A stretch of 64,000 nt of DNA from Eledone cirrhosa (lineage: Eukaryota), in assembly GCA_964016885.1 (NCBI GenBank), contig OZ024757.1, positions 42,160,001 to 42,224,000 on the forward strand, written 5' to 3'. Positions 3,692 through 25,400 of the stretch are shown piece after piece. Made by a program: the position numbers and the translations under genes. The first letter of the stretch is position 1, and each line of letters opens with the position of its first letter. The notes below the pieces were generated by a model that was not told the origin of the DNA, made no database searches, and saw only the letters and a list, made by a program, of their open reading frames with translations.

Positions 3692-6600
3692 ATGGATTTG
3701 TCGTGGATTCCTAAGAAGAAGGAGTTGTCATGGCTCCAAGGTATCTGTGCACAGATAATAAAGACAGGACCTATGCCCAAACATGTGGCCTTCATTATGG
3801 ATGGCAACCGGCGTTTCGCCAGTAAGAATTCAATTGACCAGTCTCAAGGACATATTAAAGGATTTATTACACTTACCGAGGTAACATTTTGTAAAGATAT
3901 TCATATTTTTTCTTCTTTTAAACGTCATTCACCAACATTCAACATTGTCTTGCCATTAGTCCCCACTTAGTATCACTGCCATTCTTCTCCATGTACAAAC
4001 ACCACTGTTACCACCACTAACCTCCCCCCACTCTACCCACTGTGTCAATGACCACTACTAATTTTGTTGGTTGGGGTAAGGTCATAATGAACCCAACATA
4101 TAGAAGAAAGAGAGAGGGGGAGATAGGACTCCACATATACAAAAGAGAACGAAACCTTATATATGCAAGGGAGTGAGAGAGAACTTTTTTATATAGAAGA
4201 GAGAGACCAACCTTATATATACAAGAGAGGGAGAACCCTTATATTTGCAAGAGAGAGAGAAACAAGTGCAACACTAAACCGTCTGGTGTTCTTCCTTTCT
4301 CCAGGTTCTAAACTGGTGCCACAACCTTGGAATTACTGAAGTTACTGTTTATGCATTCAGCATTGACAACTTTAAACGGTCAAAGGAAGAGGTGGACTGT
4401 TTAATGGGTTTGGCACGAGAACGATTCAGACGTCTTCTACAAGAGAAGTAAGTAATATACTGTTTACTAATATTTGCTTTTGTTTAACCTTTTGCCATTT
4501 AAACTGGCCAGAATTCTCTTATCTCTTCTTGTTCAAACTGGCTGTAACTGGCTGCTGATATTGATGTTAAGGTATTGTGAGATAAAGCCTTTGCCATATA
4601 AATACAATAGTATATGTAGAGTAATATAAATGCTAAAGAGTTAAACCATTTTTTTTTTTTAAATGTATGCCCAAATTTGGGCATGCATTTGTAATTTGCT
4701 TGAAGCATTGTGGAATAAGAAATACAAATTTAACCCTTTAGCATTCAACCCGGCCATATCTGGCCAGAATTCTCTCACTTCTTTCTGTTCAAACCAGCCA
4801 TAACCAGCCTCTCATACTTATGTTAAGGTATTGTTCTTAAAATATTATGTGAGATATTATGTGAGGTAAAGCCTTTACCATGATAATACAATAGTAAATT
4901 TAGAGTAATGAAAATATTATGTGAGATAAAGCCTTTACCATGATAATACAATAGTAAATATAGAGTAATGTAAATGTTATGTGAGATAAAGCCTTTACCA
5001 TGATAATGCAATAGTAAATATAAAGTAATGTAAATGCTAAAGGGTTAACTCGGAAATTATTTGGAAGACAGACAATGCATGTGAGATTATAAGTGGCAAT
5101 GTAATAGGAATTAGAGAAAATAGGATAAAAGGACTGAGAAAAGTGAGAATGGTAGAATTTTAATGAGCTCATTTACTTTTTTTCAAAATTTCAGAGAGGA
5201 ATTATTGAAGAATGAAGTTTGTATCCGAGTTTTTGGTAATCTTAGTCTACTTCCTAAAGACATCCGAGAAAATATTGCGGAAATTGTAACAATTTTTAAA
5301 AACAATTCCAGGTAAGAAATCTCTCTCTATATGTGTGTGTCTGTCTCTCTCTTTCTCTCTGTGTATGTCTCTCTCAACTGTTGGTGCCATATTTTGATAA
5401 GAAGATATGATAAAGGGTTTAAGTTAAAAAGATTAAATGTAAGATTCTGGGTCTGGCATAAATGTGCTAAGATAGACAGGCCAAGACTGAAATTGATAAT
5501 TTTAAGGGACTTCATAAAAAAAAGCTAAACAAAGGGAAAGGTAAAAAATGCTCCAAGGTCATTGAGTAAATTTTAAGGGACTTCATTGAATGAAAAAAGG
5601 TCATTGAGTAAGTTTTAAGGGACTTTATTGAACGAAACAAAAAGGTCAAGGGTGCTACAGGGTCATTGGTAGTAAGTTAAAGAGACTGAATATAAGATTC
5701 AGAGTCAAACTTAGTTAAATCGACAGACCTAGACTGTGTAAGGTGATAGACCAAGTCACGCATCCTTAATGAGAAAAGGGAGTATGAACATAACTAACAC
5801 CTGCAACTTCGGACCTCTATTGTGTAAGCTCACAACTTATTTATATACTTACTACTTGTGGAGTATTTCAAATTACAGCTCCATCTTATTTGCATAATTG
5901 CACCAGATATACACGTTCTAGTATCAATATTTAATTGTTCAATGGGAGTTTATTTAATTCAATTTAATTATAGTTAAATATTAATGATTTAAACGTTTGT
6001 CAGACTTTATTTTTTGTAAGACTTCCAAGGAAAGATAGTGGAGAAAGTTTGTTTCTTGTTGCTTGTTGAAATATTTAAATGTCTGCCATTGTTGTAAATG
6101 ATGAAGGGAGATAAGATGTTTTACTCTGACCGCTGTGATGACGGGAGATAAGCAATAATTCTTCTTCCTTGCTGCTCACTTTGCCATTAAAGTTATTTGT
6201 AATTAAATTAACAAAGCATTTATAATCTAAACATTATAGTGGAAAGATTTGTGAAATTATAATCTCTATTGTAATTCTCTTCTTTCTTTTTCCCTATAAA
6301 CTTTTATATATATATATATTTATACAAGTTAATATTTCATTGTAAAGGACTGTTTGAGTTTAGAACTCGTTATTCATAGTATATATTTATATATATATAT
6401 ATATATGCAAAAGTTCTATTTAAAGTTGTTGGGATACAACAAGCAAATATTTTTATAACTGATATAAAGCATTCGACAAATTTGGGGAGTAGATATACGA
6501 TATTAATAAATGGAAACTATATTTATTTCATTATACATATTTCAGGGATATCACATTAAATTATGGTATGCCTTCATCAGACAAAATACAATACAATTGT

Positions 6601-22400: not shown

Positions 22401-25400
22401 CAATAATATATATAGAGTAATGTAAATGTTATGTGAGATATTATGTAAGGTAAAGCCTTTACCACAAATATACAATAGTACATATAGAATAATGTAAATG
22501 GTAAAGAGTTAAACAAGTTAAGAAGAAAAAAAAAAGAAATCTAAAATAAGAGTCACTTACAGTGGCCAGTTCTTTCTGGGTCATGTTACACCTTTGTCGA
22601 CATTGTTGTATGAGCCGAGACACATCAATGCTGACTTTACTGATATGTAACTCCTCGGTTTCTTGGTCGAGTTTGTTTGCATTGATATTTGCGGCATGTT
22701 GCTTATTTTGACCAGCACTAACTGAAAGTATTAAAATAATGGCATATATTAAACAGAAAAAATCTAAAGTCTGTCTTAACCCTTTAGCTAGCATTTAAAC
22801 CGGCCTGAATTCTCTCTTATTTTGACCAGCACTAACTGAAAGTATTAAAACAATGTCATATATTAAACAGAAGGGGCCATTTATTATATAAGAATGCTAA
22901 CAAAAATCCATCACTATATTTCTGTTACCATATTTCAAATAAAAGACACTGCCTGTGATTTTCAAATAATCAAGCTGACCTTGCACAATAACACTAAGGT
23001 GGTGACACAGTACCATGACCTCTGGTGCTATGAAGTATTACAGAAGACCCGCTCTCTTATATTCTCAGGCTGAGAAGCTGTCGTGTCCCCGACACAACAC
23101 AAGAGTCATTAACTGAAATTTAATTTCATCTTCAAGAACAAATGTAGGTAAGATTATAATTAAAAGAGGAAAGTTCTAGAACTTGATAGAGTTTAATTGA
23201 AAAAAGCAAAACAGTCTTACATCGTTTAGTAGTCTCCACGGCTGCCCCTGTTCTTTGAGCAGTAGTAACAGCCTACAATAGAGATTGAAAACTAAGAATC
23301 AACATGTTAACATAGCACAAATATAGGTTTATATCTACAGTCATTATTTCCTGTGTGGGTTAAAGAGTTTGCTTGGAAGCAACAGTTTCTGCTTCATTTT
23401 CCACTGGATGTTGCTTTAGGCAAATGTCCTCAGTTATAGCTTTGACTTGACCAATGCTTTGTGAGAAGTGGACAGAAAATGCAGATACCTATTGTGTTTT
23501 TATTTTTATATATATATGGATGGTGTACTAGGCTCATGAATGCTTGAAAGCAAGCTCGACCAGATGATATATATATATATATATATATATATAAAATATG
23601 CACTCAGATCGTCCTGTATAGACATACTTATCTTACAATAAAAAGCACCCAGCCCACCTTATAAACTGGTAGTGCTGGTGCTACAGATATAAAAAAGCTC
23701 CTAGTACATGAGCAAGATATGGTCGCCAGAGCTGTCTAGTCTCATAATATGACAGCTTGTTTAACTCGTACAAATATAGAGAATAGATGTACATTGAACT
23801 TAGGTGTGCTTAAACACAGGGCCCCGTTTGCCTGGAGGGCCCATCTTGCTGCAAAAAACATTTTTTACGATGAATTTTTTGAATATTTTTCATAGTAAGG
23901 GGCCACATAACTTAACTAATACAGGACCTCATTTGTCCTAAATCCGACACTGCAAGGCCTTCCTTCTCCTTCAGTGGGGTTAGATTTCAGGGAAAGGTTG
24001 AACTACCATGTAAAAACTTCCCCGATGGCACTAAACATTTGTATATAATACCATCAACTGTTATTATATACAAATATTCATAAATTTAAATTAATTGAAA
24101 ACTTGAAATATTATTTTTATCCTCCAATCAGAATTATACACAGCATTCTTTACACTAAATTCCAATTCCACAGACTTAACATAAATTTCAATGTCATTCT
24201 TTATTCACACAGACATATATATACATATATGTGTGTGTGCATTCCTGATGATTTCATACGAATGAAGCCTTTTTTCCATATAAATTTCTATCTTGTGAAA
24301 GCAGAAGTTCTTTGCTTAAATTTTAATCAGTACTAATAATAAATACATATATATCCAGGGAGTGTAACTTGGAGTTACTGTAGGTTCACCCAGGTGAGCA
24401 CTCGATGTTTAGGTTCACTTCAGTGTCGAGCTGTAGAGCTAGACAGAGTGTATTATAGTGAAAAGATAACAAGGACGATTGGTTACTCCTTCATTACGTT
24501 TATTGGTTGGTGACGCGTGTTTCGCCACTGATCAGCTCAAGGTTTGATCTGTATCGATCTTATCCGACTCTGTAATCTGCGGCTCGTCGGACCCCTTTTG
24601 ATTTTCTACTAGCATTACAAGCGGTCCGACGAGCCGCAGATTACAGAGTCGGATAAGATTGATACAGATCAAACCTTGAGCTGATCAGTGGCGAAACGCG
24701 CGTCACCAACCAATAAATGTAATGAAGGAGTAACCAATCGTCCTTATCTTTTCACTATATATATATATATATACATGCACAGATTTGCACAGATTTCTAA
24801 TTAACACCTCGCATGTGTGATTTAATTAGGAGTCAGGCATAGCATTAAATAAGGTGCAATACCAGTAATTTACTAATAAAAACGAGTGACAAGGATCCTA
24901 GAATGGACAATATATATCTATATATACAGGGTGTCACCCCCCAAAAATGTATACACATTTTGATTACCTGTACAGGTAATATTTATTAGAATGCACAGCA
25001 TTTCCAAAAAATAAAACGATCTCCAGACATAATTCAATTGTATGTAAACACCCAAAAAATGTTTACATAATTTAAATAATGCATATAAAACAGAATTTAT
25101 TTTAATGCATTTTTTCTACAGTTGAAATGTGTATACATTTTTGGGGACACTGTATATATTGCAAGCAGGGAAAAGCGGACGTAAAATGATGATGATATAT
25201 ATATATGTTTACATAAGTTAAATGATGCATATAAAACAGAATTTATTTTAATATATTGCATATCTTTTGCTGTTGAAGTGTGTATACATTATTTGGGGAC
25301 ATCCTGTATATACAGTATATTCAACAGTCTAGGTTAGGTTCACTGGTGGCGAGAGACAAGAAGCACATGGTATTAAGACGACGAAACAGACAGGTTTCTG

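Follow-up and report, generated by a model that had tools for sequence, protein, structure and literature searches.

How do long palindromes with a hammerhead ribozyme motif in each arm arise in the genome of Eledone cirrhosa? We analyzed a stretch of 64,000 nucleotides (nt) of this species (assembly GCA_964016885.1, contig OZ024757.1, positions 42,160,001 to 42,224,000 of the forward strand), denoted here as the window, which contains four such palindromes, P1 (6497–6691), P2 (6726–7158), P3 (15888–16684) and P4 (24454–24759). Judging from their sequences, the arms are almost certainly 5'-truncated 3' ends, or pseudo-long terminal repeats (pLTRs), of families of Hydra-clade Penelope-like elements (PLEs) whose protein combines a reverse transcriptase (RT) with a C-terminal GIY-YIG endonuclease. 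Each palindrome is a single insertion, and not a member of a family that spreads as a hairpin. Taken together, the palindromes are probably best explained as individual Hydra PLE insertions in which two truncated, hammerhead-bearing 3' ends lie head to head in a TA repeat, likely as a result of cutting and priming on both target strands.

Inverted repeats were searched for by masked self-BLAST; without masking, TA repeats dominated the output of repeat finding. P1, P2, P3 and P4 were the four top-scoring near-adjacent inverted repeats of the window, with self-identities of 96, 96, 90 and 92%, respectively, and BLAST gave no cross-matches among them at E<0.01. The four mutually unrelated inverted repeats described by a first-pass annotation of this DNA were thus recovered at the same positions, and the plan it had proposed for them, in which A(A/T)TAAA follows each hammerhead core and TA runs adjoin the element, was seen in all four. 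The same annotation had counted three palindromes with a one-sided tail; the tails themselves were confirmed, whereas the count was too low, because the tail of P1 (6406–6496, minus strand) had been missed. The P1 tail, which extends the left arm, starts with the first of two hairpin boxes described below and is 87 nt long in L263, a tandem copy of a sister subfamily. The tails of P2 (7159–7252, plus strand, followed by (TA)n), P3 (16685–16818, plus strand, about 135–145 nt across its family) and P4 (24355–24453, minus strand, about 100 nt) were located likewise. The palindrome centres are asymmetric joins: at the 5' end, the tailless left arm of P2 extends ~12 nt beyond the right arm, and the tailless right arm of P4 exceeds its partner by ~20 nt. 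We considered whether the palindromes could be fold-back artefacts of sequencing or assembly. Among the four sequencing runs examined, which did not include long reads, no record spanned P3, and this is evidence neither way. However, the arms of one palindrome differ by substitutions and by indels of up to 19 nt, and in dozens of loci both ends coincide with boundaries specific to the element, with a tail on one side only, so we regard an artefact as extremely improbable.

A strict scan for type I hammerheads found seven cores in the window, six of them in P1, P2 and P4 and a solitary one at 59892. The block-shuffled window gave a mean of 0.09 cores and a maximum of 3 (100 shuffles, strict scan), and none of 2000 shuffles of each single arm contained a core. 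Both cores of P3 were missed by the strict filter and recovered by a relaxed scan, which had no shuffle control, so that a core is present in eight of eight arms. The hammerheads of P1 (6608–6656, plus strand; mirror copy at 6580–6532 on the minus strand) and P2 (7058–7102, plus; mirror 6826–6782, minus) have a canonical core. Those of P3 (16598–16636, plus; mirror 15974–15936, minus) and P4 (24626–24704, plus; mirror 24590–24512, minus) have a C at core position 4, denoted as U4C, and the hammerhead-like P4 motif includes a 60-nt stem II region. The assignment to type I hammerheads with a palindromic stem III, made in the first-pass annotation, holds. The same cores recur in the dispersed families to which the arms belong, numbered 1 to 4 after P1 to P4: the canonical core was found in 44 of 44 matched arms of family 1 and in 76 of 77 of family 2, U4C is fixed in family 3 (29/29 matched arms), and it is the majority form in family 4 (11 of 15 arms matched by a strict pattern). 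According to the available part of PMC3088659, U4C lowers hammerhead activity in vitro. No Rfam hammerhead family appeared at E<=1 among the best 150 of 188 matches, and the hairpin matches to microRNA models were far under their thresholds. In the minimum free energy (MFE) folds of the plus-strand arms, stems I and II were present in P1 (z −2.2) and P2 (z −2.5). The hammerhead stems of P3 were not in its MFE fold, and the core of P4 was sequestered by another stem.

To which elements do the arms belong? Genome searches with one arm of each palindrome returned from tens to thousands of first-look candidates (80, 1129, 3217 and 2720 for P1 to P4, respectively; these are not copy numbers), of which 40 each were scored. 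The copies are dispersed in the 3.0 Gb genome, as the suggestion of a genome-wide class had implied, and their 3' end, which abuts (TA)n, is fixed, whereas their 5' truncation points vary; the 3' ends ran into TA repeats in nearly all copies inspected. Walking upstream at the genome copies reached a long open reading frame (ORF) in all four families. In family 2, whose copies are 99% identical and hence young, L121 consists of pLTR, ORF and pLTR with a period of 3.5 kb. Family 3 forms tandem units of 3.55 kb in L191, with ORF motifs in L192 and L132, and family 4 is complete in L194, where two pLTRs enclose a unit of 4.5 kb. An ORF in L124 was rejected as the parent of family 4, as it has no link to its P4 end; the linked ORF came from a second upstream walk. 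For family 1, the ORF is linked via a sister subfamily (L122, L262–L272) that is 83% identical at the 3' end. Copies L262–L272 of this subfamily are 98–99% identical with long open frames, and so are young and may have been active recently. Hydra-like ORF pieces that are not linked to families 1–4 were also seen (L124:2020–2772, L195:2–2256, L025 and L026) and point to further families in the genome.

The derivation from PLEs proposed at first was borne out, as long copies of each family, with the sister subfamily standing in for P1, encode a Penelope-like RT and a GIY-YIG domain. The YRDD motif precedes the Y[IV]G.T motif in L121, L122, L132, L137 and L194, which places the RT before a C-terminal GIY-YIG. 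All four families have DKT in place of DKG and a CxCX5C linker, the N-terminal motif is RWK in families 2 and 4 and RWR in families 1 and 3, and, read by eye rather than from a formal alignment, there is at most one Cys between the two GIY-YIG halves in families 1–4, so that CCHH is absent from the endonuclease core. The available text of PMC8557442 gives an RWK-like motif, DKT, CxCX5C, the lack of CCHH, (TA)n targeting and the constant presence of hammerheads as diagnostic of the Hydra clade. The best named protein match, among 660 matches from 8000 scored candidates, was to the octopod Argonauta hians (hypothetical protein, 41% identity). Three points weigh against the assignment to this clade: the Pfam match to GIY-YIG was weak and sub-threshold (E 0.001), the parent ORFs gave no Pfam match to RT, and the assignment relies on motifs and architecture rather than on a tree against reference PLEs. 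A Naiad-like origin had been suggested as well. Naiads share (TA)n targeting, inverted or tandem structures and a tail with the families described here, but in the same source they are characterized by an N-terminal endonuclease, a DKA motif and the lack of canonical hammerheads, all three of which fail here. Since the parent ORFs have a C-terminal endonuclease together with the DKT and other Hydra motifs, the arms are not Naiad-derived.

We next considered whether the palindromes are copied as such. The first-pass annotation had proposed non-autonomous families that spread as hairpins, the antisense arm masking the ribozyme, which we took to mean short families with fixed centres that are copied as whole hairpins. 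Insertions of families 2 and 4 were sampled as the best 30 matches to the 3' segment common to both arms of P2 and P4; with double counts dropped (two P2 loci and one P4 segmental duplicate), 28 P2 and 29 P4 insertions remained, 57 in all. Head-to-head pairs made up 22 of the 28 P2 insertions and 16 of the 29 P4 insertions, and no adjacent second 3' arm was seen in the other 19. A shared centre, for which we checked, was not found: the junction strings were distinct in 22/22 P2 and 16/16 P4 pairs, that is in all 38, and the P3 junction is private. Many P2 palindromes do look alike, because the 5' ends of 27 of 50 P2 arms lie between −206 and −234 by hand count, which gives P2 its apparently fixed centre, but this hot spot is also where single-armed copies end. 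A second cluster of 5' breakpoints in family 2 lies at −713 to −716 (L203, L218 and L223), near the ORF end. As a cause of the P2 hot spot we considered annealing at an 8-mer that is self-complementary, since, among the joins that could be parsed, two overlap exactly there. This was rejected because single-armed copies have the same end point.

The divergence of the arms also speaks against hairpin copying: within a locus, they have drifted apart by 1.0% in P2 and 5.9% in P4, only a little less than the 1.6% and 7.2% between loci. Arms of the same locus share non-majority bases about four times as often as arms of different loci (0.38 versus 0.10% of sites in P2; 0.90 versus 0.22% in P4), an excess that is consistent with one source for both arms. 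Long ORF-bearing copies exist in each family, and the P3 form is unique in the assembly. None of the 57 mapped insertions was a short direct tandem of hammerhead units; the tandems seen were ORF-bearing units of 3.5–4.5 kb. The masking part of the proposal fared differently. Whole palindromes were predicted to fold as a single hairpin with 95–97% of bases paired, which abolishes stem II in silico (probability 0.0 for P1, P2 and P4), so the antisense arm is predicted to mask the ribozyme in read-through RNA. Nothing points to selection for masking, which would be a by-product of palindrome formation. Considering the distinct junctions, single-armed copies and long parents, we find the spread of whole hairpins very improbable.

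If each palindrome is one insertion, its two arms could come from one cDNA or from two. In a fold-back route, a single complementary DNA (cDNA) primed at the tail would end prematurely and fold back to serve as its own template, and the product would then be resolved short of the tail by the endonuclease; the available part of PMC8557442 ascribes the tail to endonuclease-mediated resolution. Exactly one tail was present in 38 of 38 pairs (22 P2 and 16 P4), with tails of 87 to about 140 nt across the families. The tailed arm was equal or longer in 22 of 38 pairs, as fold-back would allow: it was longer in 11 (3/22 P2 and 8/16 P4) and equal within 10 nt in another 11. However, the tailless arm reached further 5' by >10 nt in the remaining 16 (11/22 P2 and 5/16 P4), in some pairs by hundreds of nucleotides, and at four P2 loci the inverted arm consists of part of the tail only. 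A copy of the tailed arm cannot contain sequence that is missing from that arm. A tail-primed cDNA that folds back cannot yield an arm longer than itself, and a tailless one cannot gain a tail in this way, so at least 16 pairs need two priming events. Fold-back is therefore excluded as the sole route, and we consider it unlikely as the general explanation.

P3 is the difficult case for two priming events. Each P3 arm contains, in order, the end of the tail, the start of the ORF, an internal deletion of ~3 kb and the 3' end of the element. The inner ~180 nt of each arm correspond to the start of the element's ORF, which in the right arm lies at 16329–16466 (plus strand), includes the RWK-like motif and stops at the deletion junction. 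Both arms have the same deletion, with the ORF start joined to the 3' untranslated region, the loop is 4 nt and the tailed arm is 4 nt longer. A pattern search of the genome for this deletion gave three matches: one in each P3 arm, and a third at a locus where the breakpoint differs. Splicing was rejected as the source of the deletion since no GT-AG bounds were seen by eye, and a subfamily was rejected since the form is private to P3. An independent insertion of family 3 (L183/L198, G000:C7) has internal-deletion breakpoints within about 10 nt of those of P3, which suggests a template-jump hot spot.

We then examined the element ends. In tandem copies of the four families, a short conserved hairpin box of the form RCTC-spacer-TYGAGY begins 4–8 nt beyond seven of eight element ends as matched by a regular expression, and the eighth end has the same box with a spacer one base under the cut-off. 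The expression gave six matches in 15.6 kb of element sequence, all at element ends. The available part of Frangieh et al. 2024 (PMC11167929) describes a PLE of Anolis, PAc/Poseidon, whose protein, a predicted dimer, cuts both strands of AT-rich targets in vitro and extends each of them; reverse transcription begins at two internal sites, which mark the limits of the tail. Together with the single tails, the longer tailless arms and the boxes, this makes priming on both target strands, with two start sites in the RNA, the somewhat favoured route for families 1–4. RNA of a tandem master copy would run beyond the pLTR into the start of the following ORF. The RT-endonuclease, probably dimeric, would bind the two short hairpin boxes just 3' of the two start sites. 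Priming of one DNA end at the upstream site would give the tailless arm, and the tailed arm would come from priming of the other end at the downstream site. Synthesis of both cDNAs would terminate prematurely, in many cases at common 5' hot spots, and host repair would then join them; the resulting stubs, having no second box, would be dead ends that cannot regenerate a palindrome. A stricter version, obligate asymmetric twin priming, would place one dimer on the two boxes of a single RNA with one start site per target strand, so that tail length would equal the box spacing and palindromes would be the normal product. We give this version an even chance.

Several observations weigh against priming on both strands or against the strict one-tail rule. 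The private deletion in both arms of P3 requires one shared template; twin priming on a single deleted RNA would provide this, but fold-back, or copying from one arm to the other at a later time, would do so just as well. The samples consist of the best 30 matches per search, and since the last base of the P4 query belongs to the tail side, tailed anchors are favoured in that sample. When the P1 and P3 samples were put through a crude test for tails, 19/21 and 10/12 undeduplicated rows, respectively, had one tail; three of the exceptions seem on inspection to be parsing misses, which leaves L043 as a possible true exception. The box expression was drawn post hoc from these very sequences, and its rarity therefore cannot count as independent evidence. 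In the anole study, as far as its available text goes, no difference in start site was seen between the strands, so that study gives no reason for the absence of pairs with two tails or with no tail. Finally, both-strand priming in families 1–4 is inferred from sequence and the anole in vitro system and not from biochemistry on these families.

How much of this is new? The first-pass annotation had considered the class possibly undescribed, and this does not hold. Hydra-1_Obim is listed in the available parts of PMC8557442 and its supplement, as is a Hydra element to which a 5'-truncated copy is attached in inverted orientation. The same source treats a 5'-truncated inverted copy next to the 5' end and a one-sided tail of 30–40 bp as typical of PLEs, and states the origin of PLE tails and inverted pLTRs as unresolved. 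Compared with the Hydra elements described there, including Hydra-1_Obim and Penelope-13_HM, families 1–4 share the RWK-like, DKT and CxCX5C motifs, the lack of CCHH, the 3' hammerhead, (TA)n targeting, tandem pLTRs, the inverted copy and the one-sided tail. They differ in unit length (3.5–4.5 kb versus generally <3 kb), in tail length (87 to about 140 nt versus 30–40) and in the U4C core of two families, the Hydra cores in the available File S2 all being canonical. None of five short motifs from families 1–4 occurs in the PMC8557442 supplement. In 2014, Cervera and de la Pena (PMC4209133, available in part) ascribed minimal PLE hammerheads 100–700 bp apart on opposite strands to truncated PLEs. 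Those are also of type I with a short palindromic helix III, for which activity as a dimer was proposed, and unlike them P4 has its long stem II region; the available part of that paper does not cover molluscs. The Anolis element, in contrast with families 1–4, belongs to a different clade and has a 30–40 nt tail, and its two sites are not linked to inverted insertions or paired boxes in the available text. Non-LTR retrozymes (bioRxiv 10.64898/2026.07.22.740005, available in part) likewise have type I hammerheads related to PLE pLTRs, but are defined there as head-to-tail tandems, unlike the head-to-head truncations of ORF-bearing families seen here. By title or abstract start we found no mechanism paper on twin priming in PLEs, in a search that left subscription papers and Repbase/Dfam outside, and the families or the model may already be in print. 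On the sequence evidence, then, this is a known architecture of a known clade, with families 1–4 absent by motif from the supplement mentioned above.

Other features of the window were recorded alongside the palindromes. The window has no PLE ORF body by tblastn. Two single-armed ends lie on the plus strand: a more diverged family-4 end at 26548–26656, truncated before the first half of the core, and a family-1-related end at 59880–59971, whose hammerhead core spans 59892–59941. A degenerate inverted repeat of 316 nt at 27884–28199 (71% self-identity) has no hammerhead core. A short inverted repeat at 32310–32450, flanked by TA runs, has a single-armed relative near 24930 (24925–25000) and is possibly the end of another TA-targeting element, and an imperfect 107-nt inverted repeat at 14625–14731, which adjoins a TA run and sequence that recurs by TA repeats at many loci, may be another family end. 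Palindromes at 27586–27665, 15660–15809 and 14527–14594 are centred on (TA)n with non-repetitive inverted flanks, and so show the opposite, tail-to-tail geometry. Arms of 193 nt at 40267–40459 and 47087–47279 are 95% complementary and 6.6 kb apart; they may flank a transposon or simply represent a short repeat that occurs twice.

For the annotation of this 3.0 Gb genome the value is modest: four unlisted Hydra-clade families that leave hairpins with ribozymes all over the DNA. There is more to gain on the mechanism, since a young family with 99% identical copies, a strict one-tail rule and paired boxes make the model testable with the published in vitro system. If obligate asymmetric twin priming is true, the PLE tail and the inverted pLTR would be explained by one mechanism.

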